Positions 3,446-59,856 of a stretch of 64,000 nt of DNA are shown here, piece after piece (within the stretch, counting starts at the first letter, position 1; the number at the start of each line of letters is the position of its first letter). The stretch spans positions 128,001-192,000 of the forward strand of contig SCQK01000007.1 in NCBI GenBank assembly GCA_004321885.1, given 5' to 3'. Position numbers and translations under genes: made by a program. The notes under the pieces are model-generated. The model saw only the letters and a list, made by a program, of their open reading frames with translations. It was not told where the DNA came from and made no database searches. Origin of the DNA: Patescibacteria group bacterium. Its GTDB lineage: Bacteria > Patescibacteriota > Patescibacteriia > Magasanikbacterales > GWA2-37-8.

Positions 3446-4529
3446 GCTTCTGTTAGGCATAGAGTCATCTTGCGACGATACTTCAGTGGCCCTGGTCGCC
3501 TGCGGCGAACGGGGCTGTTTTGTGGTTGCCGAAAAAACCGCTTCGCAAACCGCGCTCCATAAAAAATACGGGGGCGTGGTGCCGGAAATAGCCGGGCGGG
3601 CGCACGCGGAAAAAATCGTGCCCCTGATTGAGGCGGTTCTGCGAGGAAAAAAGCCGGATGTTATCGCCGTAACCGCCGGACCCGGATTGATTACCGGTTT
3701 GCTGGTTGGCGTGGAAGCGGCGCGCGTTTTGTCATACGCGTGGAATGTGCCGCTATTGGCGGTAAATCATATTGAAGGGCACATCTATTCCGTGGAATTG
3801 GAAAACGAAAAAATCAAGTTCCCCGCTCTCGCGCTTATTGCCAGCGGTGGTCATACCGAGCTGATTTTTATGAAAAACCACGGCCAGCACAAACTGCTTG
3901 GCGCCACGCGCGACGACGCGGCCGGCGAATGTTTTGACAAGGTCGCCAAACTGCTCGGTCTCCCCTACCCGGGCGGTCCGGAAATTTCTCGGCTGGCGAT
4001 TGGCGGCGACCCGGGCGCCATAAAATTTCCGCGGCCGATGATAGAAAGCGATAATTACGACTTCAGTTTTGCCGGATTAAAAACCGCGGCGCTGTATTGG
4101 TTAAGGGATAATGTCATTGCGAGGCCTGAAAGGCCGAAGCAATCCCCCACAATCAAGCAAGGGATTGCTTCGCTTCGTTCCACTTCGCTCGCAATGACAA
4201 TGAATGATTTCTGCGCCAGTTTTGAGCAAGCGATAGTAGACGTCTTGGTCGCGAAAACTCTGAAAGCGGCCAGACAATACAAACCGAAAACCGTTATTCT
4301 TGCTGGCGGGGTTTCGGCGAACAAGAAACTTCGCTCTGCGCTTGAAAAGGCAATAAAAACTCTCGCTCCAATTACCAATTTCCAATTACCAATTTCCAAT
4401 TATTGTATGGACAACGCGGCCATGCTCGCCGTGGCCGGATATTATCGCGCGAAGAAAAAAAATTTCACTGATTGGAAAAAAATCCAAGCTGACCCGAATT
4501 GGACGATTTCTGGATTCCCCCGTACTTAG
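3446..4529 (+). CDS. tsaD: tRNA N6-adenosine threonylcarbamoyltransferase TsaD (Kae1/TsaD family)
   Basis: MLLLGIESSCDDTSVALV...AVNHIEGHIY...GGVSAN. The start is at 3446, not the track's 3180, which would run through the tRNAs. It carries two in-frame repeat insertions (4112-4199 and 4368-4402), and its last codons and stop lie inside repeat 4512-4543. Confidence 0.9.
4112..4199. repeat. family C long palindromic element (TGTCATTGCGAGGCCTGAAAGGCCGAAGCAATCCC...GGGATTGCTTCG...GCAATGACA) inserted in-frame in tsaD
   Basis: A near-identical copy lies at 27761-27838, and a half copy at 59138-59165. Confidence 0.85.
4368..4402. repeat. family B heptamer array (CCAATT[A/T])5, the complement of (GGAAATT)n, in-frame in tsaD; encodes ITNFQLPISNY
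   Basis: Direct heptamer tandem array; the same unit is present at 26432, 28424, 28866 and 59164. Confidence 0.85.
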
Positions 4530-4543
4530 TCGGGGGAATGACA
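4512..4543. repeat. family C hairpin GGATTCCCCCGTACTTAGTCGGGGGAATGACA; supplies the last 5 codons and stop of tsaD and lies between tsaD and dnaE
   Basis: Identical copies at 26832-26863 and 33789-33819. Confidence 0.85.
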
Positions 4544-4551
4544 AACTTGCG

Positions 4552-8145: not shown

Positions 8146-8180
8146 TATGTTACCTCAACTATTCTTTTTTATCAAACAAA

Positions 8181-8222
8181 AATCCCTCCCTTTTAGGGGA
8201 GGGACAGGAGCGGGCTAAATCA
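8181..8222. repeat. family A hairpin repeat
   Basis: aatccctcccttttaggggagggacaggagcgggctaaatcac. Confidence 0.8.
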
Positions 8223-11137: not shown

Positions 11138-11143
11138 AAACGG

Positions 11144-11170
11144 GGATCCTGAAACAAGTTCAGGATGACA
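11144..11170. repeat. family D hairpin GGATCCTGAAACAAGTTCAGGATGACA between pheT and pheS
   Basis: Reverse-orientation copy of the TCATCCTGAACTTGTTTCAGGATC unit found at 51263, 59817 and 29553. Confidence 0.8.
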
Positions 11171-11172
11171 AT

Positions 11173-12204
11173 TTAAAACTGTTTTATGAATCGCAAATCT
11201 CCGCTCTCCAAATGGCGAACGTCTTCAATGCCGTATTTAAGCATGACCAAACGGGTAAGGCCGAAACCAAACGCGAACCCGGAATAAATTTTTGGGTCAA
11301 CACCGCCTTCTCTGAGCACATTAGGGTGAATCATTCCTCCAGGCATCACTTCAAGCCATCCGGTATTTTTGCACACTCGACATCCTTTTCCGTGACACAA
11401 AAAACAAGTCAATTCTCCGCGCACGCCCGGTTCTACGAATGGATAAAATTTCGGCATTAAGCGCAGCTCGGTACCGACGCCAAATAAATGATCCGCGACT
11501 GCCTGCATCACGCCTTTCATGTGAGCAAAGCTGATATTTTTATCTATTACTATTCCTTCAAGTTGATAAAATGTATGCTCATGCCTTGGGTCAGTAGCTT
11601 CATTCCGATAACATTTGCCCGGAACAATCGCCCGCAGGGGCACCCCGTATTTTTGCATGGCCCGCACCTGCACCGAAGAAGTATGCGTGCGCAAAACCCA
11701 ATCCGAATGCCCTTTGATGTAAAAAGTGTCCTGCATGTCGCGCGCCGGATGCTCGGGTGGAATATTAACGGCCGTAAAATTGTAATAATCGCTTTCAAGT
11801 TCCGGCCCGTCCAAAACCATAAAACCCATGGAGGTAAACAAATCTTCCAAGTCCTTTTGCACCAAAGTATTGGGATGAAAATGCCCGCGTTCCTCCACAG
11901 GCAAAGCCGGCTGGGTGACATCCACCCGCTCTTTTTCCAAACTGTTCTTCCACTCCCCTGTCATCAGTTCGGATTTTTTCGCCGCCAGCGCCTTTTCTAT
12001 CGCCCCCTTCACCTCGTTCGCCAATTGTCCGGCGCTTTTTTTCTCTTCATCGCTCAAATTTTTCAACCCCTTCAAAAGCAAAGTCAGCTCGCCGCTCTTG
12101 CGGCCCAGCAATTTTATTTCTAACTGTTCCAATTCGCCCGCGCTTTTGGTCGCCCCGATCTCGCGCAAGGCCGATTCCTTTAATTGAACAAGTTTGTCTA
12201 TCAT
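11173..12204 (-). CDS. pheS: phenylalanine--tRNA ligase alpha subunit
   Basis: Class II aaRS motifs with a ...GGMIHPNVL...RLVMLKYGIEDVR...FIKQF C-terminus. The start is at MIDKLVQLK (12204) rather than the track's 12261. Confidence 0.9.
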   Translation of the reverse strand: MIDKLVQLKESALREIGATKSAGELEQLEIKLLGRKSGELTLLLKGLKNLSDEEKKSAGQLANEVKGAIEKALAAKKSELMTGEWKNSLEKERVDVTQPALPVEERGHFHPNTLVQKDLEDLFTSMGFMVLDGPELESDYYNFTAVNIPPEHPARDMQDTFYIKGHSDWVLRTHTSSVQVRAMQKYGVPLRAIVPGKCYRNEATDPRHEHTFYQLEGIVIDKNISFAHMKGVMQAVADHLFGVGTELRLMPKFYPFVEPGVRGELTCFLCHGKGCRVCKNTGWLEVMPGGMIHPNVLREGGVDPKIYSGFAFGFGLTRLVMLKYGIEDVRHLESGDLRFIKQF

Positions 12205-16393: not shown

Positions 16394-16433
16394 TTTCCCT
16401 CCCCTTTATAAGGGGAGGGATAGGGAGGGGTAA
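16394..16433. repeat. family A hairpin repeat
   Basis: tttccctcccctttataaggggagggatagggaggggtaaa. Confidence 0.85.
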
Positions 16434-16436
16434 ATT

Positions 16437-16943
16437 ATGCTTTCCATCAAACTCCATCGCCAAAAACCCGGACTGTGCGGACCGGCTTGCCTGAAAATGG
16501 CGCTGGAATTTTTTTCGGCCAAAGGCCGACCCGCCTTTGGCGGGGGCAAAAGCGAAGCCGAATTGACGCGACTGGCCAAAGGCACAAAAAACAAAGGCAC
16601 AAACGCGGCTGATTTACTGGGCGTGGCGCGCTCACTCGGGTTTGATGGATTTATTAAGGACTCCGCGGAAATAAAAGACATAAAAAAATTTGTTGTAAAC
16701 AACAAAATCCCCGTTATAGTGGATTGGTTTTCTCGCGACGACGGCCATTACAGCGTGGTCGTTGACGTTGATAACAAAAATATTTTTCTGGCCGACCCGG
16801 AAACGGCGAAAATAAAAAAGATTGATTTAAAAACTTTCAAACGCGTCTGGTTTGATTTCCCGGGCGATTTTCTAAAAACCAAAAACGAAATTATTATCCG
16901 AAGGATGATTGTCATTTGGCCGACCAATTTCCTCTCCCCTTGA
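16437..16943 (+). CDS. stand-alone peptidase C39-like (papain-like cysteine peptidase) domain protein
   Basis: QKPGLCGPACLKMAL (catalytic Cys) and DGHYSVVVDVD (His). The C-terminal 10 residues are encoded by a family A repeat. Confidence 0.7.
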   Translation: MLSIKLHRQKPGLCGPACLKMALEFFSAKGRPAFGGGKSEAELTRLAKGTKNKGTNAADLLGVARSLGFDGFIKDSAEIKDIKKFVVNNKIPVIVDWFSRDDGHYSVVVDVDNKNIFLADPETAKIKKIDLKTFKRVWFDFPGDFLKTKNEIIIRRMIVIWPTNFLSP

Positions 16944-17070
16944 TAAGAGGAGAGCGAGAGAGGGGTATCGCGGTTTCCCCTCCCCTTTTTAAGGGGAGGG
17001 TGAGGGATGAGTAATCGTCAATTCCCCCGCCCCTTTATAAGGGGCGGGCGGGGGTGGGGTAAACAATCGC
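16931..17070. repeat. cluster of three family A hairpin repeats (16931-16966, 16973-17015, 17021-17070)
   Basis: cctctccccttgataagaggagag..., tttcccctcccctttttaaggggagggtgagggatgagtaatcg and attcccccgcccctttataaggggcgggcgggggtggggtaaacaatcgcc. Confidence 0.85.
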
Positions 17071-17074
17071 CAGT

Positions 17075-17509
17075 ATGCCAACAAAATTTTACAACAAACC
17101 GATTCTTAAAAAAATCAGGAGCAAACTTCGTAATGAGATGACAAGGGGAGAAAAAATTTTGTGGTCAAAATTGCGAAGAAAAAATTTAGAATTCAAATTC
17201 CGCAGACAATACGGAATAGGAAATTACGTTCTTGATTTTTACTGTGTAGAATTGAAACTGGCGATTGAAATTGACGGGCTTTCGCACCACAGCGAGAAAG
17301 CGTTTGAAGAGGATTGCAAACGACAAAAATATTTGGAATCGTTGGGAATAACTGTAATGAGATACAACAGCGAAGATGTTTTTAAAAAATTGGAGCAGGT
17401 GGCCGAGCAAATTTATCAGACGTGTCAGAACTTAAACGCGAAATTGCCTACCCCCACCTCGCCTCCCCCTTATAAAGGGGGAGAAAGTCGGCGATTTCTC
17501 TCCCCTTGA
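17075..17509 (+). CDS. DUF559-type endonuclease-domain protein (Vsr/restriction-endonuclease-like fold)
   Basis: GEKILWSKLRRKNLEFKFRRQYGIGNYVLDFYCVELKLAIEIDG is the hallmark of DUF559. The C-terminus reads through family A repeats. Confidence 0.7.
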   Translation: MPTKFYNKPILKKIRSKLRNEMTRGEKILWSKLRRKNLEFKFRRQYGIGNYVLDFYCVELKLAIEIDGLSHHSEKAFEEDCKRQKYLESLGITVMRYNSEDVFKKLEQVAEQIYQTCQNLNAKLPTPTSPPPYKGGESRRFLSP

Positions 17510-17540
17510 TAAGGGGAGAGCGAGAGAGGGGTAAACACTC
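17449..17540. repeat. two family A hairpin repeats (17449-17490, 17494-17540)
   Basis: tacccccacctcgcctcccccttataaagggggag... and tttctctccccttgataaggggagagcgagagaggggtaaac. Confidence 0.85.
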
Positions 17541-17554
17541 TTACTCACACTAAA

Positions 17555-17833
17555 TTATTTTTTCTTCCACGGGTCTTCTACATCCGATAAAGACGGAATT
17601 TTTTTATGTTTTTTAGCAATTGCAGCAGCTGCTCGCTTCAAATCTTCTGTAGCGTCAGGCATTTCGTTTACAGAAGGGACCTGGACCCTAAGAAGTTGAA
17701 TGTCTTTATATAACGTTCCGTCACTGGTTCTAACTGCGTAGTAAGTAAAAGCATTCGGATCTGGATATTTTTTTGGTTGTATAACCCTGACCTCTACGAT
17801 TGTCCCTAAACTTTGGCCGTTTACGACGATCAT
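17555..17833 (-). CDS. hypothetical small protein
   Basis: 92-aa ORF with no recognisable family. Confidence 0.4.
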   Translation of the reverse strand: MIVVNGQSLGTIVEVRVIQPKKYPDPNAFTYYAVRTSDGTLYKDIQLLRVQVPSVNEMPDATEDLKRAAAAIAKKHKKIPSLSDVEDPWKKK

Positions 17834-18022
17834 TTCTTTTCCGATCTCGGGAACATCTTTTACATAGATTGTCCCTTCTACGTATTCGCGCGGTGGTTGA
17901 TGTTCTGGTATATTAGTATTGAATTAATTTTATATAAAGTTGACCCTCATAACTAACCGCGTAGACTGATATTATACAGGCCTCATGTTTTACGGTCAAT
18001 TGGAGTTCTGCAAGACAATCTT

Positions 18023-18146
18023 ACTCCACCCCACCTCGCCTCCCCCTTGGAGAGGAAACAACGATTACCCCTCCCCAACCCTCCCCTTATAAATGACGAT
18101 TACCCCTCTCTAACTCTCCCCTTATAAAGGGGAGAGAAACGACGAC
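18023..18146. repeat. three family A repeats and half-repeats (18023-18060, 18066-18100, 18101-18146); the last supplies the C-terminus and stop of the phosphomannomutase gene
   Basis: tacccctctctaactctccccttataaaggggagagaaacgacgac. Confidence 0.8.
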
Positions 18147-19516
18147 ACTTCTTTTGTCTTATCGGTCATCAGCGACTCTGAACGCGCTTCCAAGTTGAGG
18201 CGCATTTTGTTTTCGGTGTTTGACGCGCGCACGTTAAACCACCAGTCCGGCCATTCAAAAGACAGCCCGTCAAAGTCATATTTCAAATTCGCGCCATACT
18301 TTTCCCGCAAAGCAACGAACACCGCCTGCTTGTCTTCCACCGCGAAATTGATTTCACCCGAATGAAAATACTTATACAAAGGCGCGCAATACTCGCTTAT
18401 CGTCTTCCCGCTCTCGGACAGCTCCTGCAAAATCTTCAAGAGCATTATCTCCGGCGCCTCAAAAGTGCCGTGCGGCATTTTCAAGAAAAAATGCCCGGAT
18501 GATTCGCCGGCGAACACAGCTCCGGTCTCGGCCATCTTTTCTTTTATCAGCGAATGCCCCACTTTGGTCACCATTGGTTTGCCGCCGGCCTCCACGATCA
18601 TGTCCTCGGTGATTTTGCCAGGCCGAACATCGTAGCAAATTGTCGCGCCCGGATACTCGCGCAAAAATATCTGCGCCAAAATGCCACGCACTATGGCCGG
18701 CTCTATTGTCTTGCCTTTTTCGTCAACAAAAAATACTCGGTCCGCGTCGCCATCAAGAGCCACGCCCAAATCAGCGCCGGTTTCAACAACTTTTTCTTGA
18801 AGCGCGCGGTTGTTTACATCTTTCAAAGGATCGGCCTCGTGATTTGGAAAATTACCGTCCAGTTCAAAATACAAAGGCACTAACTCGCACGGTAAATGTT
18901 TGAATAATTCTTCCATCAAAGGTCCGCCCATACCGTTGGCCGAATCAACCACCACTTTGAGTGGATTAATTTTCTTCACGTCCGCCTGGGTGAGAGCGAA
19001 GGCGATGTGATCCGCGATGACGTTTTCTTTTTTTGACAATACCCCCTTCTCACCTCCCCCTTGTAAAGGGGGAGGGATTGCGCCACCCGCGATCATATCG
19101 CGGATTTCCATTATTCCGGTATCTCCACTTATCGGACCGGCCGCGGCGCGCACCATCTTAAACCCGTTATACTTCGCCGGATTGTGTGAGGCCGATACTT
19201 GCAAGCCGCCGTCATAGCCGTAATGGGCCACGGAAAAATAAAAAGTCGGCGTGGAAACCAAACCAACGTCAATCACGTTCACGCCTTGCTCCAAAATTCC
19301 TTTGATAACCGCGTTTGCCAAAACCGGAGAAGAAGCGCGCATGTCGCGGCCCACAACGACTGTTACCCCTCCCTCACCCTCCCCTTGTAAAGGGGAGGGA
19401 GTGCGCCTGATAAACTCCGCGAACGCCCGCCCCACCTTAAAAGCCAAACCCTCGTTTAATTCATCCGGATACACCCCCCTGATGTCATAGGCCTTAAAAA
19501 TTTGTGCTGGAAACAT
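18122..19516 (-). CDS. phosphomannomutase/phosphoglucomutase family protein (alpha-D-phosphohexomutase)
   Basis: SASHNPAKYNGFK active-site loop and GVALDGDADR metal loop. It carries two in-frame family A insertions (19040-19083 and 19363-19405). Confidence 0.88.
   Translation of the reverse strand: MFPAQIFKAYDIRGVYPDELNEGLAFKVGRAFAEFIRRTPSPLQGEGEGGVTVVVGRDMRASSPVLANAVIKGILEQGVNVIDVGLVSTPTFYFSVAHYGYDGGLQVSASHNPAKYNGFKMVRAAAGPISGDTGIMEIRDMIAGGAIPPPLQGGGEKGVLSKKENVIADHIAFALTQADVKKINPLKVVVDSANGMGGPLMEELFKHLPCELVPLYFELDGNFPNHEADPLKDVNNRALQEKVVETGADLGVALDGDADRVFFVDEKGKTIEPAIVRGILAQIFLREYPGATICYDVRPGKITEDMIVEAGGKPMVTKVGHSLIKEKMAETGAVFAGESSGHFFLKMPHGTFEAPEIMLLKILQELSESGKTISEYCAPLYKYFHSGEINFAVEDKQAVFVALREKYGANLKYDFDGLSFEWPDWWFNVRASNTENKMRLNLEARSESLMTDKTKEVSSFLSPL
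19040..19083. repeat. family A hairpin inserted in-frame in the phosphomannomutase gene (encodes GGAIPPPLQGGGEKG)
   Basis: tacccccttctcacctcccccttgtaaagggggagggattgcg. Confidence 0.85.
19363..19405. repeat. family A hairpin inserted in-frame in the phosphomannomutase gene (encodes TPSPLQGEGEGGV)
   Basis: ttacccctccctcaccctccccttgtaaaggggagggagtgcg. Confidence 0.85.
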
Positions 19517-19637
19517 AATTTTGCTTGAAATATTAATGCAAGTACTATATAATAATAATGTAAATTGGGCAAGGTTTATTTCTGGATTCCCGCTCCCTGT
19601 TCAGAGCCAGGGACAAGTTTCGTGGGAATAACAAACT

Positions 19638-22031: not shown

Positions 22032-22106
22032 ACCCCCTCCCCTATTAGGGGAGGGGGAACCCAATTACTCCTCCCCCTTTTAGGGGGAGGATAAAGGAGG
22101 GGGTAT
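22032..22106. repeat. two family A hairpin repeats
   Basis: accccctcccctattaggggagggggaaccc and aattactcctcccccttttagggggaggataaaggagggggtatt. Confidence 0.85.
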
Positions 22107-22108
22107 TT

Positions 22109-26326: not shown

Positions 26327-27759
26327 AAGATGGCTTTAAAACAATTTTTATCTGCTCAAATTGCGACGCGCAATTTACCAAGTGGGTGGGTAAATGTTTG
26401 GAATGCGGGAAGTGGGGAACAATTGAAAAATCCCAATTTCCAATTTCCAATTTCCAATCAAATTCCAAACTCCAAAATCCAAACACCCAAAATTATCCAC
26501 CAGTAACGACGAAAAGACTTTCAGAGATAGACAGCGCGGAAGCCAAAAGGATAAAAACAAACATTGATGAATTAGACAGAGTGCTTGGAGGGGGGCTCGT
26601 GCCGGGCTCCCTTGTTTTATTGGGCGGCGAGCCGGGCATCGGCAAATCCACTTTGGCAGCGCAATTGGCGGCCGCGATTCCCAACACCTTATATATTTCC
26701 GGCGAAGAATCCGCCGAACAGATTAAATTGCGCTTTGAGCGATTGGGGATTCCGGGTCAAGCCCGGAATGACAATAATGAGACCTTGCGCTTCGCGAACG
26801 CGACGAGCGTGGAGAGTGTGATAGCGGCCATGGATTCCCCCGTACTTAGTCGGGGGAATGACAGTAAAAACGAGACGGTCGGAATGACAAAACCACAACT
26901 CGTTATTGTTGACTCAATTCAGACAACGAGATCAGACGAAGTAGAGGGCGAGGCCGGAAGTATAAACCAAGTGCGGGCCTGCGCGGTTAAACTCATGGAA
27001 GCGGCAAAATCCACGGGCGTACCGATTGTTTTAATCGGCCAAGTGACCAAAGACGGCGCCGTGGCCGGCCCCAAAACCCTGGAACATCTGGTGGACACTG
27101 TGCTCTATCTGGAAGGCGACCGCTTTCACCAATTCAGAATCTTGCGCGCCGCCAAAAATCGCTTTGGCTCAACCGATGAAGTCGGAATTTTTTCCATGGA
27201 AGAAAACGGCCTGCGAGAAGTGAAAAATCCATCGGCCGCGTTTTTGTCCGGACGCGAAGAAAATGTGCCCGGCTCTTGCGTTACCTGCCTGATGGAAGGC
27301 ACCCGTCCCCTGCTGATTGAAGTGCAGGCGCTCGTAACAAAAACTAACTTCGGCTATCCCCAGCGCCGGGCCTCGGGCTTTGACCTAAACCGCTTGCAAG
27401 TGCTTATCGGCGTGCTGACCAAACGCGCCGGACTGCCGCTGGACACTTATGATGTATTTTTGAATGTCGTGGGCGGGATAAGCGCCGAGGAACCGGCCGT
27501 GGACTTGGCCGTGGTGCTCTCCATCGCTTCGGCCACGAAAAACAAACAACTGCCCAAGGGGCTGGCCGCTTTTGGCGAAGTGGGTTTGGGCGGCGAAGTG
27601 CGCGCCGTCAGCCAAGCCAAAAAACGTCTGGATGAAATCAAAAAAATGGGATTTGAATTCGCCGTGGTGCCGGCTTCTTCCGAAGAATACAAAGCGGGCG
27701 GCATCAAAATCGCGCCGGTAAAAAATGTGAAAGAATTAGTAGAAAGGATTGTCTTGTGA
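26323..27759 (+). CDS. radA: DNA repair protein RadA/Sms
   Basis: C4 zinc ribbon; RecA-like GGEPGIGKST Walker A; KNRFG motif; Lon-like C-terminus. It carries in-frame repeat insertions at 26432-26493, 26748-26773 and 26832-26863. Confidence 0.92.
   Translation: MKDGFKTIFICSNCDAQFTKWVGKCLECGKWGTIEKSQFPISNFQSNSKLQNPNTQNYPPVTTKRLSEIDSAEAKRIKTNIDELDRVLGGGLVPGSLVLLGGEPGIGKSTLAAQLAAAIPNTLYISGEESAEQIKLRFERLGIPGQARNDNNETLRFANATSVESVIAAMDSPVLSRGNDSKNETVGMTKPQLVIVDSIQTTRSDEVEGEAGSINQVRACAVKLMEAAKSTGVPIVLIGQVTKDGAVAGPKTLEHLVDTVLYLEGDRFHQFRILRAAKNRFGSTDEVGIFSMEENGLREVKNPSAAFLSGREENVPGSCVTCLMEGTRPLLIEVQALVTKTNFGYPQRRASGFDLNRLQVLIGVLTKRAGLPLDTYDVFLNVVGGISAEEPAVDLAVVLSIASATKNKQLPKGLAAFGEVGLGGEVRAVSQAKKRLDEIKKMGFEFAVVPASSEEYKAGGIKIAPVKNVKELVERIVL
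26432..26493. repeat. family B heptamer array (CCAATTT)n plus degenerate units, in-frame in radA (encodes FPISNFQSNSKLQNP...)
   Basis: cccaatttccaatttccaatttccaatcaaattccaaactccaaaatccaaacac. Confidence 0.85.
26748..26773. repeat. family C hairpin GGATTCCGGGTCAAGCCCGGAATGACA in-frame in radA
   Basis: Same subfamily as 34358-34383. Confidence 0.8.
26832..26863. repeat. family C hairpin GGATTCCCCCGTACTTAGTCGGGGGAATGACA in-frame in radA (encodes DSPVLSRGNDS)
   Basis: Identical to 4512-4543 and 33789-33819. Confidence 0.85.
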
Positions 27760-27760
27760 C

Positions 27761-27838
27761 TGTCATTGCGAGGCCTGAAAGGCCGAAGCAATCCCTTGCA
27801 ATGTGGGATGGGATTGCTTCGCTTCGCTTGCAATGACA
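27761..27838. repeat. family C long palindromic element exactly filling the gap between convergent radA and recG
   Basis: tgtcattgcgaggcctgaaaggccgaagcaatccc...gggattgcttcgcttcgcttgcaatgaca. Confidence 0.85.
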
Positions 27839-30013
27839 TTACTCCAAATGCACTGCATTCTCCCACTCTTTAATCTTCGCCGTTAAGGTCGGAAATTTCC
27901 CCAATCTCGGCGCCACTTGCCGCGCCGCCTCGCGCGCTTTTTTTATTATCTCTTTATCCGTCAGCTTGGCCAAACGCAAATTCATAAACCCGCTCTGGGC
28001 CGTGCCATAGACCTCGCCGGGCCCGCGCATTTCCAAATCCTTTTCCGCCAGCTTGAACCCGTCGTTATTTTTTTCAAAAAATCGCAGGCGCTCCAGGGCG
28101 CGCGGCGACTCCTGCTCCACGAACAAAAAACAATATGACTGATGAACCGAACGCCCCACCCGGCCGCGAAATTGGTGTAACTGGGCCAATCCAAACCTCT
28201 CGGCCCCCTCTATCATCATCACGCTGGTGTTTGGAATATCCACACCCACCTCCACCACAGACGTGGAAACCAAAATATCCAACTCGCGCTTCCTGAATTT
28301 TTCCATTGTCCCGTCTTTTTCTTTTGGTTTGAGGCGTCCATGCAAATATCCCACCCGCAAATCCGGAAATATATTTTTTGAAAGTTTTTCAAATTCTGAA
28401 AGCACCGATTTCTTGTCGTCTTTTGGAAATTGGAAATTGGAAATTGGAAATTCTTCGTTGTTTGCCCCAATTAAAGGGCAAACAACGAAGCACTGCCTGC
28501 CTTTTTTTACTTGTTCGCGGATAAAAGTGTACGCCTTGACGCGATTTACCGGCTCCACCAGCCGCGTCAAAATTTTCTTGCGGCCCGGCGGCAATTCGTT
28601 GATAATGGAAACATCCAGGTCGCCGTAAACCATGAGGGCCAGAGAGCGCGGTATCGGCGTGGCGGTCATGCTCAAAAAATGCGCGCCGCCTCCCTTTTCT
28701 TTTATCGTCTTTCTCTGCCCCACCCCGAAACGATGCTGTTCATCCACAATCACCAAACCCAATCTTTCAAACTCCACTCCTTCTGTCAGTAAAGCATGTG
28801 TGCCAATAATAATTTGAATATTATTACTCTTGATCTTTTCCAAAAAATCTTTTTTATTAAATTTTGAAAATTGGTCATTGGTCATTGATTGGAAATTGGA
28901 AATTGGAAATTGGGATTTTGAACCAGTCAATAAGCCCACTTTAACTTTATGCCCAAGAAGATTAACGATTGAATTATAATGTTGCACCGCAAGTATCTCG
29001 GTGGGCGCCATCAGCACGGCTTGGTAGCCATTCAAAGCCGCGTTGTACATGGCCATAGCCGCCACCACGGTCTTGCCCGAACCGACATCGCCCGACAGCA
29101 GGCGATTCATCGGCGTGGTTTTTTGCAAGTCCTGTAAAATTTCCCAGGCCGAAATTTTTTGCGTTTTGGTTAGTGTAAAAGGCAAACTCGCCACAAATTC
29201 CTTGATGGCGTTTTCGTTAAAAGCGAGGGACGGGGCTTTGGCGTCGGCTTTTTCCAGCCGCGACAGTTCGGCTTTAAGCTGAATCAAAAATAACTCATCA
29301 AATTTCAGACGCTCGGTGCTTTTGGCCAAATCAATTTCATCTTTGGGAAAGTGAATACCCTGCAAAGCCGATGATAAAGGCGCTAAATCATACTTGTCTA
29401 AAATTTCATCAGGCAGCCATTCTTGCATTGCGGCCGATAATACAATCACCTGGCTAACCAAAAAACGAATCTGTTTTTGGGTCAGCCCGGCCGTAAGCGG
29501 ATACATCGGCACCAGTCGCGCCGTGTGGGTCGTATACAAACCCTCCCCTTTCAGAGCCTGCCCTGAACTTGTTTCAGGGGGAGGGACAGAGGGTGGGGTA
29601 TTCACTCGCTCATACACCGGCCCAATCATCTGCGCCCCCAACATATCGGTCCGCGCCTTGCCCGACAAAAAAACCTCGTCCCCGGGCCTAAGCGTCTTGC
29701 CAATAAACGGCTGATTAAACCAGACCACGCGCAAACTACCGCTCGCGTCCGAAACCAGCGCTTCGGTGATGTTTTTTCTCTGACGCGGACTGCGCTTGTT
29801 GGCGATGAGCTCAACTTTGGCGCGCACTGTCACCGCCTCCCCGTGTTTCAGGTCGGCGATTTTTACCACGCTCCGAAAATCCTCGTAACGGAAAGGAAAA
29901 TAAAAAAGAAGGTCGGCCGCCGTGGCCACACCCAAACGCTCCAGCCGCTTGGCCGTGGTCTTGCCCACTCGGGAAAGTTGTGAGATTGGGGTGTTTAAGT
30001 TCATAATCAGCAT
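27839..30013 (-). CDS. recG: ATP-dependent DNA helicase RecG
   Basis: Wedge domain; DVGSGKT Walker A; DEQHRFG; helicase C motifs. It carries in-frame insertions of family B (28424-28454, 28866-28916) and a nested A/D repeat (29537-29607). Confidence 0.92.
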   Translation of the reverse strand: MLIMNLNTPISQLSRVGKTTAKRLERLGVATAADLLFYFPFRYEDFRSVVKIADLKHGEAVTVRAKVELIANKRSPRQRKNITEALVSDASGSLRVVWFNQPFIGKTLRPGDEVFLSGKARTDMLGAQMIGPVYERVNTPPSVPPPETSSGQALKGEGLYTTHTARLVPMYPLTAGLTQKQIRFLVSQVIVLSAAMQEWLPDEILDKYDLAPLSSALQGIHFPKDEIDLAKSTERLKFDELFLIQLKAELSRLEKADAKAPSLAFNENAIKEFVASLPFTLTKTQKISAWEILQDLQKTTPMNRLLSGDVGSGKTVVAAMAMYNAALNGYQAVLMAPTEILAVQHYNSIVNLLGHKVKVGLLTGSKSQFPISNFQSMTNDQFSKFNKKDFLEKIKSNNIQIIIGTHALLTEGVEFERLGLVIVDEQHRFGVGQRKTIKEKGGGAHFLSMTATPIPRSLALMVYGDLDVSIINELPPGRKKILTRLVEPVNRVKAYTFIREQVKKGRQCFVVCPLIGANNEEFPISNFQFPKDDKKSVLSEFEKLSKNIFPDLRVGYLHGRLKPKEKDGTMEKFRKRELDILVSTSVVEVGVDIPNTSVMMIEGAERFGLAQLHQFRGRVGRSVHQSYCFLFVEQESPRALERLRFFEKNNDGFKLAEKDLEMRGPGEVYGTAQSGFMNLRLAKLTDKEIIKKAREAARQVAPRLGKFPTLTAKIKEWENAVHLE
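28424..28454. repeat. family B (GGAAATT)4 array in-frame in recG (encodes EFPISNFQFP)
   Basis: ttggaaattggaaattggaaattggaaattc. Confidence 0.85.
28866..28916. repeat. family B heptamer array with TTGGTCA variants, in-frame in recG (encodes SQFPISNFQSMTNDQFS)
   Basis: gaaaattggtcattggtcattgattggaaattggaaattggaaattggga. Confidence 0.85.
29537..29607. repeat. family A hairpin carrying a nested family D hairpin (29553-29580) in its loop, all in-frame within recG
   Basis: caaaccctcccctttcaGAGCCTGCCCTGAACTTGTTTCAGGgggagggacagagggtggggtattc. Confidence 0.75.
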
Positions 30014-33781: not shown

Positions 33782-33788
33782 ATGACTA

Positions 33789-33819
33789 GATTCCCCCGTA
33801 CTTAGTCGGGGGAATGACA
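33789..33819. repeat. family C hairpin (AGATTCCCCCGTACTTAGTCGGGGGAATGACA) downstream of the tRNA
   Basis: Identical core to 4512 and 26832. Confidence 0.85.
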
Positions 33820-33837
33820 ATTTTTTGGGTGCGTTTT

Positions 33838-39067: not shown

Positions 39068-39739
39068 ATGACAAAATCAACCATACAAAAAATTGTATTC
39101 ACAATCATATTTGTAGCCATCGGCTTCGGCCTGATGCAAGTGCCATTTACCCAGCTGATAGGCTCAAAATTAAAATTCACTTTGTTTGATTTTTACGGCC
39201 CAATCGCCGGCGGATTTCTGGGTTCGGTTTGGGGTATGATTACGGTTTTGGCAATGCAAATCGCCAACTGGGCTTGGCACGGATTTAACACCGAAACAGC
39301 CACCCTTATTCGCTTTTTCCCCATGCTGTTCGCGGTTTTGTACTTTGCCAGAAAATCACGCGCCATTTTGGCAGTGCCGGTCATCGCCATGCTCGTGTTT
39401 TGGGCGCATCCCGAGGGCAGGCAGGCTTGGCACTTCGCTCTGTATTGGCTGATTCCTTTGGCAGCGCACTTTTTCCGAAATAAAATTTTGTTCGCGCGCG
39501 CTTTGGGCACGACCTTTACGGCCCACGCGGTGGGCGGCGCATTGTGGATTTGGTTTGTGCCCGGCATGAAGGCCGCGGCCTGGATAGGCCTCATTCCGGT
39601 GGTTTGGAAAGAACGCGGGCTGATGGCAATCGGCATTACCTTGTCTTTCGTCGTCTTCAATTTCCTCTTCAGCCTGGCCGCTAAAAAAATCCGGGGCCTG
39701 GACTTTCTGAAACTTCACCCAAAGTATTCGGTCAAATGA
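39068..39739 (+). CDS. polytopic membrane protein, possibly an ECF-transporter S-component-like protein (next to folC)
   Basis: Six to seven TM helices, about 220 aa, translationally coupled to folC. The family assignment is tentative. Confidence 0.35.
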   Translation: MTKSTIQKIVFTIIFVAIGFGLMQVPFTQLIGSKLKFTLFDFYGPIAGGFLGSVWGMITVLAMQIANWAWHGFNTETATLIRFFPMLFAVLYFARKSRAILAVPVIAMLVFWAHPEGRQAWHFALYWLIPLAAHFFRNKILFARALGTTFTAHAVGGALWIWFVPGMKAAAWIGLIPVVWKERGLMAIGITLSFVVFNFLFSLAAKKIRGLDFLKLHPKYSVK

Positions 39740-41115
39740 ACTTCCAAGAGGCCTACAATTACATAATCTCCCTGGCCAATATTCCGCGCAAAGAATACAT
39801 GGCCGACCCCAAACATTGCCCCTGGTACTTAAAACGGTTGAAGTTTTTTTTGCGTATTTTGGGAAATCCGGAGAAAAAAATACCCCACATCATACACGTT
39901 ACCGGCACCAGCGGCAAGGGTTCGGTCTGCCTGATGTTGGACTCCATTCTGCGTGAAGCGGCCCGCCACCGCGCCAAAAATTTTGGTGTGGTGGGCACGC
40001 TCACATCGCCTCACGCCTCGGCCATTATGGAGCGCTGGGAAGTAAACGGCCGGCCAATGCCTAAAAAAGAATTCGCGGCGCTGGTAGAAAAAATCAAGCC
40101 CAAACTGGACCAGTATATGCGCAAAACGCCGTATGACATGCTCGCCTACGGCGAACTGGCCACGGCTATGGCGCTTTACTATTTCGCCAAAAAAAAAATA
40201 GAATGGGCCGTGCTGGAAGTGGGCTGCGGCGGACGCTATGATTCCACCAATGTAATCCCGCGCAAAGATGTGGCCGTGATAACTAATATCGGCCTTGATC
40301 ATACGCAAACACTCGGCAATACCAAAGAAAAAATCGCCTATGAAAAAGCCGGCATTATCAAACGCGGATGCCAGGTGTTCACGATGGAAACAAACAAAAA
40401 AATTCTGCGCGTGATAGAAAAAGAATGCCAAAAAAATCACGCCCCGCTTAAAATTGTCTACCCCTTAGGCTGGCTCCATAGTTCCGCCAAAGGCGGACTG
40501 TGGAGCCAACGAATGCACTCTGGCTCCACAGCCCTTTGGGACTATGGAGCCAGCCGCCTCCCGGTTCTCGGCGCCCATCAACAAAAAAACGCGGCCCTCG
40601 CGGCCGCGGTGGCGCGTTCAATCGGCATCTCCGAAAAAGCAATCACGCGCGGCCTGGCCAAAGTAAAATTGCCAATCAGAATGGAAGTCGTTTCGCGCAA
40701 GCCCATAGTCATCTTAGACGGCGCGCACAACAAGGACAAAATGCAAACAACAGTGGAAGCAATCTCCTCCCCCTTTATAAGGGGGAGGCGTGGTGGGGGT
40801 AGGGGTAACATCCACCTCATCCTCGGCTTTGCCGACAATAAGGACTACCCGGCCATGCTCAAACAGCTCGCGGCGCTAAAACCAACCACCGTCGCCTGCA
40901 CCCGCTTCAGCCACAATTTCTTCCGCAAGGCCGCGGACCCCAAAATCCTGGCGGCCAAAATAAAAAAACTGCTTCCCCGCGCCAAAACCGAAATTTTTTT
41001 GGATGTTTTAGACGGCTTCAGCTGGAGCAAAAAACAAGCCGCGCCCAGCGACATTATCCTCTGCACCGGCTCCATATTCCTAAGCGGCGAATTGCGTCTC
41101 AAAATTATCAGGTGA
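39736..41115 (+). CDS. folC: folylpolyglutamate synthase/dihydrofolate synthase (Mur ligase family)
   Basis: HVTGTSGKGS P-loop; NIGLDH. It carries in-frame repeat insertions at 40468-40555 (family E) and 40762-40809 (family A). Confidence 0.85.
   Translation: MNFQEAYNYIISLANIPRKEYMADPKHCPWYLKRLKFFLRILGNPEKKIPHIIHVTGTSGKGSVCLMLDSILREAARHRAKNFGVVGTLTSPHASAIMERWEVNGRPMPKKEFAALVEKIKPKLDQYMRKTPYDMLAYGELATAMALYYFAKKKIEWAVLEVGCGGRYDSTNVIPRKDVAVITNIGLDHTQTLGNTKEKIAYEKAGIIKRGCQVFTMETNKKILRVIEKECQKNHAPLKIVYPLGWLHSSAKGGLWSQRMHSGSTALWDYGASRLPVLGAHQQKNAALAAAVARSIGISEKAITRGLAKVKLPIRMEVVSRKPIVILDGAHNKDKMQTTVEAISSPFIRGRRGGGRGNIHLILGFADNKDYPAMLKQLAALKPTTVACTRFSHNFFRKAADPKILAAKIKKLLPRAKTEIFLDVLDGFSWSKKQAAPSDIILCTGSIFLSGELRLKIIR
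40468..40555. repeat. family E double hairpin in-frame in folC (encodes GWLHSSAKGGLWSQRMHSGSTALWDYGASR)
   Basis: ggctggctccatagttccgccaaaggcggactgtggagcc...ctggctccacagccctttgggactatggagccagcc. Confidence 0.8.
40762..40809. repeat. family A hairpin in-frame in folC (encodes SPFIRGRRGGGRGN)
   Basis: tcctccccctttataagggggaggcgtggtgggggtaggggtaac. Confidence 0.8.
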
Positions 41116-41179: not shown

Positions 41180-41228
41180 ACCATTACCCCCTCCTCGCCT
41201 CCCCCTTCAAAAGGGGAAGAGAAATAAT
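41180..41228. repeat. family A hairpin in the topA leader
   Basis: ccattaccccctcctcgcctcccccttcaaaaggggaagagaaataat. Confidence 0.8.
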
Positions 41229-45867: not shown

Positions 45868-45872
45868 AAAAT

Positions 45873-45915
45873 GTACCCCCTACCTAACCTCCCCCTTATT
45901 AAGGGGGAGGACATT
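45873..45915. repeat. family A hairpin between parA and parB
   Basis: gtaccccctacctaacctcccccttattaagggggaggacatt. Confidence 0.8.
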
Positions 45916-50357: not shown

Positions 50358-51914
50358 TTAAAAATTTGTCAAAATATCTTTTATTAAAGGCACGATGATA
50401 TTTTTTTGATAGAAGTACGCGTTGGTTGGTTTTTTGGTAATAGGGAAGATTAAAGACGGCACCAACAATTCCTGACTCGCGTTGTCTTTATAAGTCCAAA
50501 TCTTTACCAGCTCCACGCTCGGGGTGCCCAGTTCAATTTTGACTACGCGGGCATTCGGGCCCTGCTCGGCGGCGTAAAACTCCTGACGCCAGCCCCCGGC
50601 CTCGGCCAGTTTTTGCAAACGGCTCGCGTCTTTTTCCGCGGCATAGCCCGAACTTTCATATTGCTGGCTGGTCAAGTTGTACACATTTTGCACCGTCAGG
50701 CCGTGCGCGTTCACGGCCACACTTAAACCACTTTTGTAACCAGACTCTTCATATATATTCTTGCCTTCCACTTTGAGCGGATAAATTACAGTGAGGGAAT
50801 CGGGCGCGTAATATTCGGCCGTACCAGAATCTTTTACAGCCGCCACTCCGTAACCGATCAGCCAGTCCTTTTGTATTTCGGGCGGGCCGTAGCTGTCGGT
50901 CGGTATGCCGTAGTCCCGCAAAAATTTATCGGCCGCCGCGATTATTTTATCGTCGCCCGGCAGATCCGAAACCCGCAAGGGTTTGTAGTACTCCGGAGAA
51001 ACCACCATATCGCTGGACCTTGTCCAATTGCTCCAATTCTGATTTATGGAAACCGAACTCTCATTCAAGTCAACATAGACCGAGTAGCCGCGGTCGCGAT
51101 TCTCGCTAAAACTGATGTTTTGCACCTTGATGCCGGAAAATTTGTTCCAATCAATGCCCAGCCGTGCGCCCGAAAGCAAGGAAGAAAGCTGGCCAAACGA
51201 AGCATCGCCGCCTTTGATTCTTTTCAGCACCTGCATCGTCCCGCTGTCATCCTGTCCACCATTGTCATCCTGAACTTGTTTCAGGATCTCCATTATCGGT
51301 TCGCCTTTATATGCATATTTATACACGTCATAAACCGGATAGTCGGGCGCTATCGTCTTGCCGGGTTCGGCAATGCCTGTGGCAACACCGGCGCTGCCCC
51401 GGCCATACGCGGCCACGGGGGCCGAAGGGGCTGGCGAGCCCAGGGCAATCTCCCTCTTCTCCTGTTTTTGCGCAGGCGCGGGTGCGGCCGCGTCCGGGCC
51501 GGCCGTTGCACCAGCCGCGGCTTTTTCTTCTAACAGCAGATTGCCAAACGCGTTGTCGGCCAGTTTGGTCACGCTCGTTTGCGCGTTCTTTAAATCGAAC
51601 AATCCGGGCCTGATATTATTTTTCACAAAAGAAAAAACCAGCAAAACCGAAGCCGCTGCCCCGGCGCCGATAAAAAGCCAGGAGAGCGGCTGAAAGCGCC
51701 GGGCCGGACGCGCCCGGGCCAAACGCGCGCCAGCTTCCAGCTCGTTGGCTCGCGTCAGTAAACGCTCGCGTAAAGCCAAACGAAATTTTTCATCAAACTT
51801 CGTGTCCGGCCGAGACGCCAGCAGTTCGTTGATAATTTTTATCACTTCCTGTTCGCGCGAACGCAACTCCGGCTCCATCGCATACAAATCGTTTAATATT
51901 TTTTGAATATCCAT
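50358..51914 (-). CDS. putative anti-sigma factor (N-terminal cytoplasmic helix, one TM, large extracytoplasmic domain)
   Basis: Overlaps the upstream ECF sigma gene; TM LSWLFIGAGAAASVLLVFSFV. It contains an in-frame family D repeat (51263-51293). Confidence 0.55.
   Translation of the reverse strand: MDIQKILNDLYAMEPELRSREQEVIKIINELLASRPDTKFDEKFRLALRERLLTRANELEAGARLARARPARRFQPLSWLFIGAGAAASVLLVFSFVKNNIRPGLFDLKNAQTSVTKLADNAFGNLLLEEKAAAGATAGPDAAAPAPAQKQEKREIALGSPAPSAPVAAYGRGSAGVATGIAEPGKTIAPDYPVYDVYKYAYKGEPIMEILKQVQDDNGGQDDSGTMQVLKRIKGGDASFGQLSSLLSGARLGIDWNKFSGIKVQNISFSENRDRGYSVYVDLNESSVSINQNWSNWTRSSDMVVSPEYYKPLRVSDLPGDDKIIAAADKFLRDYGIPTDSYGPPEIQKDWLIGYGVAAVKDSGTAEYYAPDSLTVIYPLKVEGKNIYEESGYKSGLSVAVNAHGLTVQNVYNLTSQQYESSGYAAEKDASRLQKLAEAGGWRQEFYAAEQGPNARVVKIELGTPSVELVKIWTYKDNASQELLVPSLIFPITKKPTNAYFYQKNIIVPLIKDILTNF
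51263..51293. repeat. family D hairpin TGTCATCCTGAACTTGTTTCAGGATCTCCAT in-frame in the anti-sigma gene (encodes EILKQVQDD)
   Basis: Identical to 59817-59848; there is also a TGTCATCCTG half-copy at 51245. Confidence 0.8.
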
Positions 51915-59524: not shown

Positions 59525-59579
59525 TAATACCCCTCCCATGCCCCTCCCCTAAAAGGGGAGGGATGAAAAGTGGGGTTGC
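59525..59579. repeat. family A extended hairpin upstream of rpmF
   Basis: taatacccctcccatgcccctcccctaaaaggggagggatgaaaagtggggttgc. Confidence 0.85.
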
Positions 59580-59816: not shown

Positions 59817-59848
59817 GCGTCATCCTGAACTTGTTTCAGGATCTCCAT
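59817..59848. repeat. family D hairpin GCGTCATCCTGAACTTGTTTCAGGATCTCCAT between rpmF and nusB
   Basis: Identical to 51263-51293. Confidence 0.85.
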
Positions 59849-59856
59849 TTTATTCT

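Follow-up and report, generated by a model that had tools for sequence, protein, structure and literature searches.

The window examined here is a stretch of 64,000 nt (contig SCQK01000007.1, positions 128,001 to 192,000; G+C content 49.7%) from the metagenome-assembled genome of a Patescibacteria group bacterium related to Magasanikbacteria. Its most crowded segment lies between convergent genes for an M48 peptidase and a phosphomannomutase (PMM), where three small genes encode a C39-like peptidase, a DUF559 endonuclease and a 92-residue protein (orf92) that has no match in Pfam or NCBIfam. Around and between these genes are dense hairpin repeats with CCCC/GGGG arms, composed of units of ~40 nt, which we term family A. 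Nine copies occupy 1.75 kb (16394-18139), in keeping with the preliminary description of this DNA, in which the segment from 16.4 to 18.2 kb was said to be almost tiled with such repeats. The present analysis adds four points to that description: a three-arm asymmetry of the unit, its apparent mobility, the predicted donation of Shine-Dalgarno sequences by three copies and a link to DUF559 nuclease genes.

The family A unit contains three arms. Its hairpin, of 9-11 bp, is made up of a C-arm, a TTnnnAA loop and a first G-rich arm (G-arm1); on the 3' side of the hairpin follow a spacer of 2-4 nt and a second G-rich arm (G-arm2) that ends in GTA(A). The aligned unit reads (A)TTTC-CCTCCCC-TTTATAA-GGGGAGG-G(Y)GA-GGGAGGGG-TAA. 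The repeats had been described as imperfect nested palindromes, which is correct for 59525-59579 (fold energy -26.8 kcal/mol, z = -2.6); most copies consist of a hairpin to which a single further G-rich arm is added. The nested palindrome is a poor descriptor of the family, because 59525-59579 is the only window copy with both outer arms.

G-arm2 is the mirror image of G-arm1, and neither its complement nor a direct copy of it. The arm1/arm2 pairs include GGGGAGGG/GGG[A/T]GGGG, GGGGAGAG/GAGAGGGG, GGGGGAGA/AGAGGGGG, GGGGAGAA/AAGAGGGG and GGAGAGGGG/GGGGTGAGG, and no variant class departs from the relationship, the A facing either A or T. When the 47 distinct classes are compared, non-G bases fall at matching places in 56 of 100 informative positions, against 28% for permuted pairs and 20% for arms arranged as direct repeats (p < 1e-4). 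One way to read the mirror symmetry is as a foldback triplex of the purine-motif type. A non-B structure in single-stranded DNA or RNA might be the property that is recognised or selected, whether a Y.R*R triplex of the foldback kind or a G-quadruplex (G4). This proposal, which is compatible with the explanation we prefer below, gains from the mirror excess, from the inability of a polymerase to make mirror copies and from the position of all seven G4 motifs of the window inside family A elements. It is nevertheless a rather improbable one: the structure is a predicted one, and in arms made of low-complexity G-runs the 'mirror' may in part reflect equal arm lengths anchored by the run of four Gs. 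The G-quadruplex in particular was rejected as a conserved feature. The canonical motif is found in only 6 of the 20 window copies, and G4 formation is therefore not the conserved constraint.

A covariance model based on 14 copies was applied to the window without filters; it returns 20 distinct copies, where ~0 are expected by chance, and these are exactly the approximately 20 positions listed earlier (Table 1). Sixteen are strong matches with E <= 2.3e-8 (8096, 8179, 16394, 16929, 16975, 17023, 17446, 17495, 18098, 19037, 19361, 22066, 40763, 41182, 45872 and 59525), and the remaining four (18023, 18063, 22034 and 29541) are degenerate, truncated or variant. Simple motif scans of the window point the same way. 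The sequence CCCCTCCCC, at no more than one mismatch, has 43 matches against 15.3 expected, a number reached in 0 of 100 shuffles; the hairpin core pattern has 47 against 2.0, and the three-arm pattern CCCCTTNNNAAGGGGN{10,12}GGGGTA has 10 against 0. The hairpin, with predicted energies of -12 to -24 kcal/mol, is maintained across divergent copies, because compensatory changes have occurred on both sides in 5 of 10 pairs; 97% of cells are paired, and this degree of pairing and covariation is matched by 0 of 500 shuffles. Kinship among the copies inflates some of the statistics in this analysis. Gene boundaries or gene 3' ends hold 15 of the 20 copies, and 13 of the 18 that can be oriented are G-oriented in the sense of transcription. 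An Rfam scan yields no family match for the repeats, with only tRNAs above gathering scores and, in E-value mode, only spurious miRNA-like hairpin matches.

Table 1. Family A copies and the small genes they enclose in the window (scores in bits are from the covariance model; a dot marks features without an assigned strand)
Feature	Coordinates	Strand	Score or family match
Three-arm copy, subfamily with 5-nt loop	8096..8137	+	34.7 bits
Three-arm copy adjoining the stop codon (TGA, 8220-8222) of the 128-aa gene	8179..8220	+	35 bits
Copy filling the spacer from the M48-peptidase stop to the C39 ATG	16394..16435	+	59.6 bits
C39-like peptidase gene	16437..16943	+	Pfam Peptidase_C39, 4.7e-13
Copy with AGAG arm variant, overlapping the C39 gene 3' end	16929..16970	+	51.2 bits
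Intergenic copy with decayed G-arm2	16975..17016	+	55.4 bits
Left end of DUF559 unit, G-oriented, 10 nt 5' of ATG	17023..17064	+	56 bits
DUF559 (Vsr-like PD-(D/E)XK) endonuclease gene	17075..17509	+	Pfam DUF559, 2.1e-31
Right end of DUF559 unit, C-oriented, in the 3' tail of the open reading frame (LPTPTSPPPYKGGES)	17446..17487	-	50.2 bits
Copy with the DUF559 TGA stop in its loop (17507-17509)	17495..17536	+	58.4 bits
orf92, 92-aa open reading frame enclosed by repeats	17555..17833	-	no family match
Degenerate copy	18023..18058	-	14.6 bits, E = 0.031
Truncated copy without C-arm	18063..18093	-	11.9 bits
Copy overlapping the PMM gene 3' end	18098..18139	-	59.1 bits
In-frame PMM copy (IPPPLQGGGEKGVL)	19037..19078	-	51.3 bits
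In-frame PMM copy (TPSPLQGEGEGGVT)	19361..19402	-	56.2 bits
Simple hairpin CCCCCTCCCC-TATTA-GGGGAGGGGG after the clpB-like stop, no third arm	22034..22056	.	~22 bits
Copy immediately 5' of the ATG at 22109	22066..22107	+	50.5 bits
In-frame recG copy	29541..29593	+	13.8 bits
In-frame folC copy (SSPFIRGRRGGGRGN)	40763..40804	+	46.8 bits
C-oriented copy just 5' of the topA ATG (41230)	41182..41223	-	49.1 bits
Copy filling the spacer from the parA stop to the parB ATG	45872..45913	-	50 bits
Full nested palindrome	59525..59579	.	40.6 bits (minus strand), 21.9 bits (plus strand)

The stop-to-start spacers at 16394 (M48 to C39), 22066 and 45872 are filled exactly by one copy each. In all three, G-arm2 lies 8 nt before the ATG of the next gene (GGGAGGGG ahead of the C39 gene, AAGGAGGGGG in copy 22066, and at 45872 ahead of parB, with the flanking ParA and ParB identified by NCBIfam), a position that shows these copies to be probable Shine-Dalgarno donors. 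Three other copies supply C-terminal residues and stop codons, as had been noticed before. The C39-like protein ends in NFLSP* derived from copy 16929, whose hairpin loop contains the TGA stop; copy 18098 gives PMM the ending FLSPL* with its TAA stop in the loop (18122-18124), where relatives have ...GLIKS* or ...NLIQE*; and the DUF559 protein likewise terminates in a loop. The stops of these FLSP(L)* tails are at 16943 (C39), 17509 (DUF559) and 18122 (PMM). At 22034 the covariance-model matches cover the hairpin only, on both strands.

The copies had been thought to act mostly as terminators, a role that the scan does not bear out for most of them. Copy 8096 separates two minus-strand genes, one for a 128-aa membrane protein and one that is dnaE-like; transcripts read the copy in the C-orientation, and CTTTT follows the hairpin as a weak T-run. 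The only clear T-run among the copies is at 8205-8182 on the minus strand, where the hairpin is followed by TTTTTGTTTGA. No U-tract is present in either orientation at the 18 other copies, and assignment to the intrinsic terminator class, judged by a hairpin followed by a U-tract, was rejected for all but 8205-8182, with the weak CTTTT of 8096 set beside it. Only the two 8.1-kb copies look like terminators, one clearly and one weakly. Copy 8096 is orthologous to positions 11840-11881 of the related locus L123, at the same junction between the 128-aa gene and dnaE, and this orthology, together with the terminator-like appearance, is consistent with co-option.

These features raise the possibility that selection on the host, and not selfish spread, has kept the hairpins in place as regulatory elements, for instance as terminators, stabilisers of mRNA 3' ends or cassettes of stop codon, hairpin and Shine-Dalgarno sequence. 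Copy 8179 with its T-run (and weakly copy 8096), kept at the same junction in L123, fits such a role, as do the GGAGG-like second arms placed exactly 8 nt before an ATG at 16394, 22066 and 45872 and the bias of 13 in 18 towards the G-orientation. We find it improbable as a general account, since a U-tract is missing from 18-19 of the 20 copies, four essential coding regions contain copies, and insertion relative to an empty site is precise at 16394. Tandem arrays, a nearly identical consensus in unrelated phyla and the specific association with a nuclease gene (both described below) also argue against it, as does the second arm of cyanobacterial copies (GGGTGGGG), which is not a Shine-Dalgarno sequence. 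The Shine-Dalgarno, terminator and nuclease roles discussed in this work are all predicted.

Four copies are translated in frame within enzymes, two in PMM and one each in RecG and FolC, including the PLQGEGEG and PPLQGGGEKG loops of PMM; here the preliminary description was accurate. In both PMM copies the loop TAA has become CAA, and the net gain relative to homologues is 3-4 residues for copy 19037 and 6 for copy 19361. The recG gene, on the minus strand, reads copy 29541 in the C-orientation; the loop of this copy is enlarged by a nested hairpin CCTGAACTTGTTTCAGG of another repeat family (D14), and RecG has ~15 extra residues relative to Thermotoga maritima RecG (1GM5). The frame used in folC avoids both TAA triplets and adds a net 7 residues relative to 1O5Z. 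The FolC loop that holds copy 40763 also bears inserts in many Patescibacteria, and the PMM of locus L134, the closest syntenic relative found (by tblastx, 80% identity for the M48 peptidase and ~73% for PMM), has neither loop copy and a normal C-terminus. Other Patescibacteria carry element variants of their own in the two PMM loops (L126 and L125) and in the FolC loop (L132). These loops are recurrent landing or survival sites, occupied by different variants in different lineages. Elsewhere in FolC (39736-41115), near residue 75, is a window-specific insert of 7 residues, ARHRAKNF, that is absent from 16 of 16 aligned homologues. Loop insertions appear to be common in Patescibacteria proteins, as suggested by the long, unrelated inserts that FolC homologues bear at two other loops.

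Comparison with relatives indicates how copies arrive. At 16394, locus L124 has the empty arrangement TAA-ATT-ATG (TAAATTATG), and the window has TAA-[TTTCCCTCCCCTTTATAAGGGGAGGGATAGGGAGGGGTAA]-ATT-ATG. The two differ by exactly 40 nt, an insert TTTCCC...GGGGTAA between TAA and ATTATG. L134, a closer relative than L124, contains the orthologous copy with compensated arms; both loci come from assemblies (ERZ12926xx) of the Hainich groundwater series. Downstream of clpB, the spacer is ~10 nt in relatives compared with two copies in the window. The folC-topA spacer of L133 has no copy upstream of topA; as a second clean empty site it was rejected, the spacer being too diverged for boundaries to be drawn. 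These comparisons show that family A copies apparently arrive by insertion, precisely at one site and with lineage-specific presence at the others.

The convergent M48-peptidase/PMM spacer (16394-18121 in the window) is a lineage-variable hot spot. It contains nothing in L125, a C39 remnant in L123 and L124 (a 59-aa homologue), DUF559 alone in L134, and the C39 gene, DUF559, orf92 and nine copies in the window; orf92 is absent from L134. The loss of the C39 gene in L134 resembles a deletion between repeats. In L123, an 'empty' relative with respect to the second PMM loop (within 1611-2978), the corresponding peptide is coded with a small hairpin, ATTCCCGC-CAAA-GCGGGAAT, which stands at the family A site of the window and may be a decayed older copy or a chance occurrence.

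Upstream of the DUF559 gene of the hot spot lie three copies, and its 3' end has two more. The DUF559 domain of the product stops near residue 118, and the 26 residues at the C-terminus are encoded by repeat sequence. Copies 17446 and 17495 form a head-to-head doublet with a predicted fold of -52.7 kcal/mol (z = -6.0), and the same doublet follows the DUF559 gene of L134. The family profile matches PDB entry 3HRL at 7e-29 and the homing endonuclease I-Bth0305I (3R3P) at 3.7e-4, and its putative catalytic residues are invariant. Many homologues have tails such as PPYKGG, PLAKGEGEGGG and SPLERGRV that are likewise translated hairpins. Loci selected by the element (~0.95 Mb) contain many solo copies and only two DUF559 genes; tblastn for DUF559 over these loci gives one match, and in L117, which has the only other gene, a cluster of repeats begins 40 nt from the start codon. 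Among the 72,556 records of PLSDB, the best DUF559 match is on a Photobacterium replicon that itself holds 28 element matches, and there a repeat array begins 35 nt after the gene's stop codon.

The converse selection used 80 metagenome loci (290 kb) picked by DUF559 protein similarity alone, in which the family model finds 198 matches. With a generic three-arm detector, the density in the 130 nt upstream of the DUF559 gene is 6.5 per kb and that at its 3' end 4.1 per kb, compared with 0.04 inside the gene and 0.25 in the far flanks; the corresponding values for a family profile hidden Markov model (nhmmer) are 2.6 upstream, 1.6 at the 3' end and 0.13 in the far flanks. A G-oriented copy is found just upstream of the gene at 46 of 80 loci (58%); at the 3' end, 34 of 78 (44%) have a copy in inverted orientation, often with the stop codon in its loop; 27 loci have both ends. 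Control genes on the same contigs have such copies in 4 of 133 cases upstream and 3 of 137 at the 3' end (2-3%; Fisher p = 3e-20 and 1e-14, respectively). The left and right ends of one DUF559 gene are more alike than ends compared across loci (0.48 versus 0.275, p < 2e-4), and solo copies are similar to the DUF559 ends found on the contig that carries them (0.53 versus 0.25, p = 8e-6). The counts show a specific and oriented association of the predicted elements with DUF559 genes in several phyla, like that of terminal inverted repeats. The window has the same layout: 17023-17064 (+), the gene at 17075-17509, and 17446-17487 (-).

We therefore propose, with a rough probability of 0.6, that family A consists of mobile three-arm palindromes of ~40 nt that are the solo ends of a DUF559 selfish unit, similar in kind to repetitive extragenic palindromes (REPs) and to MITEs (miniature inverted-repeat transposable elements). 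The marking of DUF559 genes at both ends across phyla suggests an undescribed selfish element made of a nuclease and a repeat. The unit would consist of two inverted ends and one gene for a DUF559 nuclease of ~120 aa (Vsr-like and homing-endonuclease-like), and the window would contain one such unit at 17023-17536; the dispersed copies would be the solo and clustered non-coding counterparts of its inverted ends. Copies arrive by insertion and persist at stop/start junctions, gene 3' ends and permissive surface loops, and some have apparently been co-opted, three as Shine-Dalgarno donors, three as C-termini with stops and one or two as terminator-like hairpins. The nuclease might mobilise the elements by nicking or cleaving their folded ends, with insertion completed by host repair or replication. 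That DUF559 is the mover, the chemistry of insertion and any role of the mirror arms are matters that we infer. More ambitiously, DUF559 nucleases with inverted three-arm ends could be an unrecognised class of selfish element spanning phyla, a nuclease-only analogue of the pairing of REPs with the REP-associated tyrosine transposase (RAYT), in which solo ends colonise spacers and loops and triplex-like arms are recognised by the nuclease. This extension is tentative, and we would sooner doubt it than adopt it.

The association could also arise if DUF559 were a passenger, that is, a free-standing homing-endonuclease gene that targets the repeats, cuts tail-to-tail doublets and is copied in by repair, the repeats themselves spreading by other means or no longer spreading. 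The likeness of the DUF559 profile to I-Bth0305I, the placement of the gene between inverted copies and the lack of a transposase domain in the protein are all in accord with this account, and tail-to-tail doublets without a gene in several metagenome-assembled genomes look like empty homing sites. A passenger would, however, leave the insertion of a solo 40-nt unit at 16394 unexplained, and would not by itself account for solo copies that track the DUF559-end variant of their contig, although families specific to each genome would also yield that likeness. We regard this account as unlikely, if well worth keeping in sight.

Several observations weigh against the proposal that family A represents the ends of a mobile DUF559 unit. 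The link between nuclease and movement is drawn from association, and a nuclease of 120 aa has neither an integrase nor a transposase domain. The target site and its duplication rest on a single clean empty/filled pair, with TAA or GTAA repeated at the 16394 site only. The in-frame copies are put at a net +9 to +21 nt against a unit of 40 nt, and at +3 to ~+15 residues, mostly less than the unit; insertion must therefore have been coupled to the loss of neighbouring codons, and simple insertion alone cannot account for these copies. With the detector used, 42% of DUF559 loci have no upstream element. At least one site, that at 8.1 kb, is kept between genomes whose PMM proteins are 76% identical, an observation equally compatible with selection for function and with selfish spread. 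Finally, a RAYT or other transposase may lie elsewhere in the source genome, the search for a RAYT having covered the window and ~1 Mb of loci.

Family A passes the check that the preliminary description had set for it, since it is not confined to one locus: copies recur throughout the window and are also present in relatives and further phyla. In species-representative genomes, the three-arm pattern is present at more than 118 loci, most of those listed being cyanobacterial. Carriers among the matches listed include Nostoc, Microcoleus, Pseudanabaena and Chamaesiphon, as well as Nitrospirota, Nitrospinota, Planctomycetota, Saccharibacteria, Nomurabacteria and others. The cross-phylum consensus agrees with that of the window at ~38 of 42 positions. 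The cyanobacterial matches are nested within larger palindromic repeats. Other genomes contain doublets of copies, either head-to-head or tail-to-tail, and the gene-less tail-to-tail doublets have 10-nt palindromic spacers. In Photobacterium sp. GJ3 (NZ_CP073579.1), 28 places match the element, and alternating arrays with a period of ~142 nt (L129, 5230-6170; L214, 985-1200) resemble bacterial interspersed mosaic elements (BIMEs). In class-1 integron contexts, a head-to-head doublet also lies between a truncated folK and the mobile sulfonamide-resistance gene sul4, on an Aeromonas plasmid (NZ_CP077204.1; L127, 2960-3042) and a Sphingobium plasmid (NZ_CP033227.1; L128). From its position between these genes, the doublet was carried along from the source genome of sul4, for which Chloroflexi have been proposed (PMC5732528), and it is a sequence marker that could help to trace the sul4 donor.

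In other phyla, copies with the full palindrome have TA...TA at their flanks, and TA always follows the end of arm 2, two features expected if the repeats were MITEs or solo terminal inverted repeats of insertion sequences (ISs) of the IS630/mariner type, which duplicate TA. Most window copies lack TA on the hairpin side, and a TA duplication of this type was rejected for them; no transposase is associated with the copies, and no full-length IS with such ends was seen. An origin from these ISs is hardly credible.

Transposition by a RAYT was considered in the same way. The copies could be classical REPs, or the paired form known as REPINs, moved by a RAYT (a Y1 HUH transposase) whose gene lies elsewhere in the genome. 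Family A resembles REPs in being short, GC-rich, palindromic, abundant and mostly extragenic, in its doublets (17446/17495) and BIME-like arrays, and in its conserved GTA(A/G) tag. A tblastn search with Escherichia coli RayT found no RayT-like open reading frame in the window or ~1 Mb of loci. The 150 open reading frames adjoining elements match 235 families, and the 25 most frequent, dominated by TPR and ATPase domains, include neither a transposase nor Y1_Tnp; the window genes scanned against Pfam and NCBIfam contain no transposase, Y1_Tnp or integron integrase. The tag of family A lies 3' of the extra arm instead of 5' at the hairpin foot, and the consensus spans phyla, whereas REP families are normally species-specific. 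We judge a RAYT-driven origin to be very unlikely.

The window contains other repeats that are distinct from family A. One family consists of tandem GGAAATT/AATTTCC heptamers (4356-4414, 26414-26458, 28409-28452, 28889-28932 and 59153-59224); those in recG (28409-28452 and 28889-28932) encode FPISNFQ in frame, both times where T. maritima RecG has a gap. At least three further small hairpin families are present. Hairpins of the type TTCCCCCGTACTTAGTCGGGGGAA are found at 4510-4544, 26830-26864 and 33786-33820, and those of the type GTCATCCTGAACTTGTTTCAGGAT at 11143-11173, 51264-51294 and 59819-59849, as well as nested in the loop of the recG copy (29541-29593). A 66-nt element occurs at 4112-4177 and 27761-27826. 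Near-consensus promoters of the sigma-70 type lie upstream of orf92 (TTGACC-17-TATAAT, 17999-17971, minus strand) and of the clpB-like gene (TTGAAA-17-TATAAT, 19525-19553, plus strand). The GyrA open reading frame (54681-58319; 1212 aa) has an intein at residues 134-508 (Pfam Intein_splicing), and the gene for an NHL/fn3-repeat protein (165-2264) contains four copies of a 141-nt tandem DNA repeat (1391-2233).

DUF559 proteins are usually annotated as 'very-short-patch-repair endonuclease' or 'endonuclease domain-containing protein'. If our proposal is correct, it gives a testable role to this large and widespread family of 'unknown function' and adds a second pairing of a repeat with an enzyme, after REP and RAYT, that crosses phyla. 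Family A also explains variable Gly/Pro-rich loop inserts and FLSP-type C-termini in Patescibacteria enzymes, which is useful for annotation and structure prediction, and it indicates that a mobile repeat can bring a ready-made Shine-Dalgarno sequence and stop codon between the genes of very compact genomes.

Literature searches with the repeat sequence strings returned matches only in papers on human G4 and TERT, and the motif is absent from the supplements of the GTAG/CGTC REP paper. In a search that did not extend to Elhai et al. 2008, no paper was found that connects such repeats with DUF559 or with Patescibacteria. Several described systems are nevertheless similar in one respect or another. 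The Rickettsia palindromic elements (RPEs) are palindromes found in frame within permissive loops of essential protein genes (PMC3184786), as family A is in PMM (twice), RecG and FolC without destroying the gene, and repeats fused in frame to genes can extend or replace C-termini (PMC3184786). RPEs differ in length (100-150 nt versus ~40 nt) and lineage, and family A has a candidate partner gene and a net length change below the unit. Membership of the RPEs by homology or size was rejected, given the ~40-nt unit and the lack of an Rfam family match. The small dispersed repeats (SDRs) of Nostocaceae (Elhai et al. 2008, as cited in PMC4390886 and PMC5861425) are very small hairpins, often nested, with no known transposase. 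The cyanobacterial matches of family A are nested hairpins too, a likeness of description only; in the literature searched, neither a DUF559 link nor a range outside Nostocaceae was found for SDRs.

The group I intron-encoded I-Bth0305I (Vsr-like, EDxHD) shares with DUF559 a catalytic domain that matches the family profile, and both are small selfish nuclease genes; DUF559, in contrast, is free-standing between inverted hairpin repeats. An integron cassette array with attC sites was rejected: the scanned window genes include no integrase, there is no GTTRRRY core, orientations are mixed, and the half-site arms are mirror-related instead of inverted. MITEs and their parent ISs (Nezha/ISNpu3, Correia) resemble the proposed DUF559 unit in that the autonomous unit and its derivatives share inverted ends, in the empty and filled sites that give evidence of insertion, and in their stable hairpin folds. 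Family A differs from them in having no transposase, solo 'ends' that insert alone and no consistent target-site duplication. Classification as an IS-derived MITE was rejected, there being no transposase by the copies and no flanking duplication at most of them.

The closest parallels are with the pairs of MITE and IS just treated and with the system formed by REPs, REPINs and BIMEs together with RAYT (the REPtron; REP classes in PMC3733652). Family A and the latter both comprise short GC-rich hairpins in many copies (20 in 64 kb here), mostly at gene boundaries, and arranged as single units, inverted doublets and alternating arrays, as in the 17446/17495 doublet and the 142-nt-period array of Photobacterium. 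In both, one protein gene lies between inverted copies with hundreds of solo copies elsewhere, and some copies are co-opted for functions at RNA 3' ends. The gene associated with family A, however, encodes a PD-(D/E)XK Vsr-like DUF559 protein and not a Y1 HUH transposase, and family A has a third, mirror arm and a consensus that crosses phyla. REPs carry GTAG or CGTC directly 5' of the hairpin foot; the GTA(A/G) of family A is instead 3' of an extra arm of 8-10 nt, about 11-13 nt from the hairpin. Because family A fails the REP test of tag position and the MITE test of a transposase, and no RAYT is present in the searched sequence, we class it as a member of neither the REPs nor the MITEs, yet as akin to both in kind.

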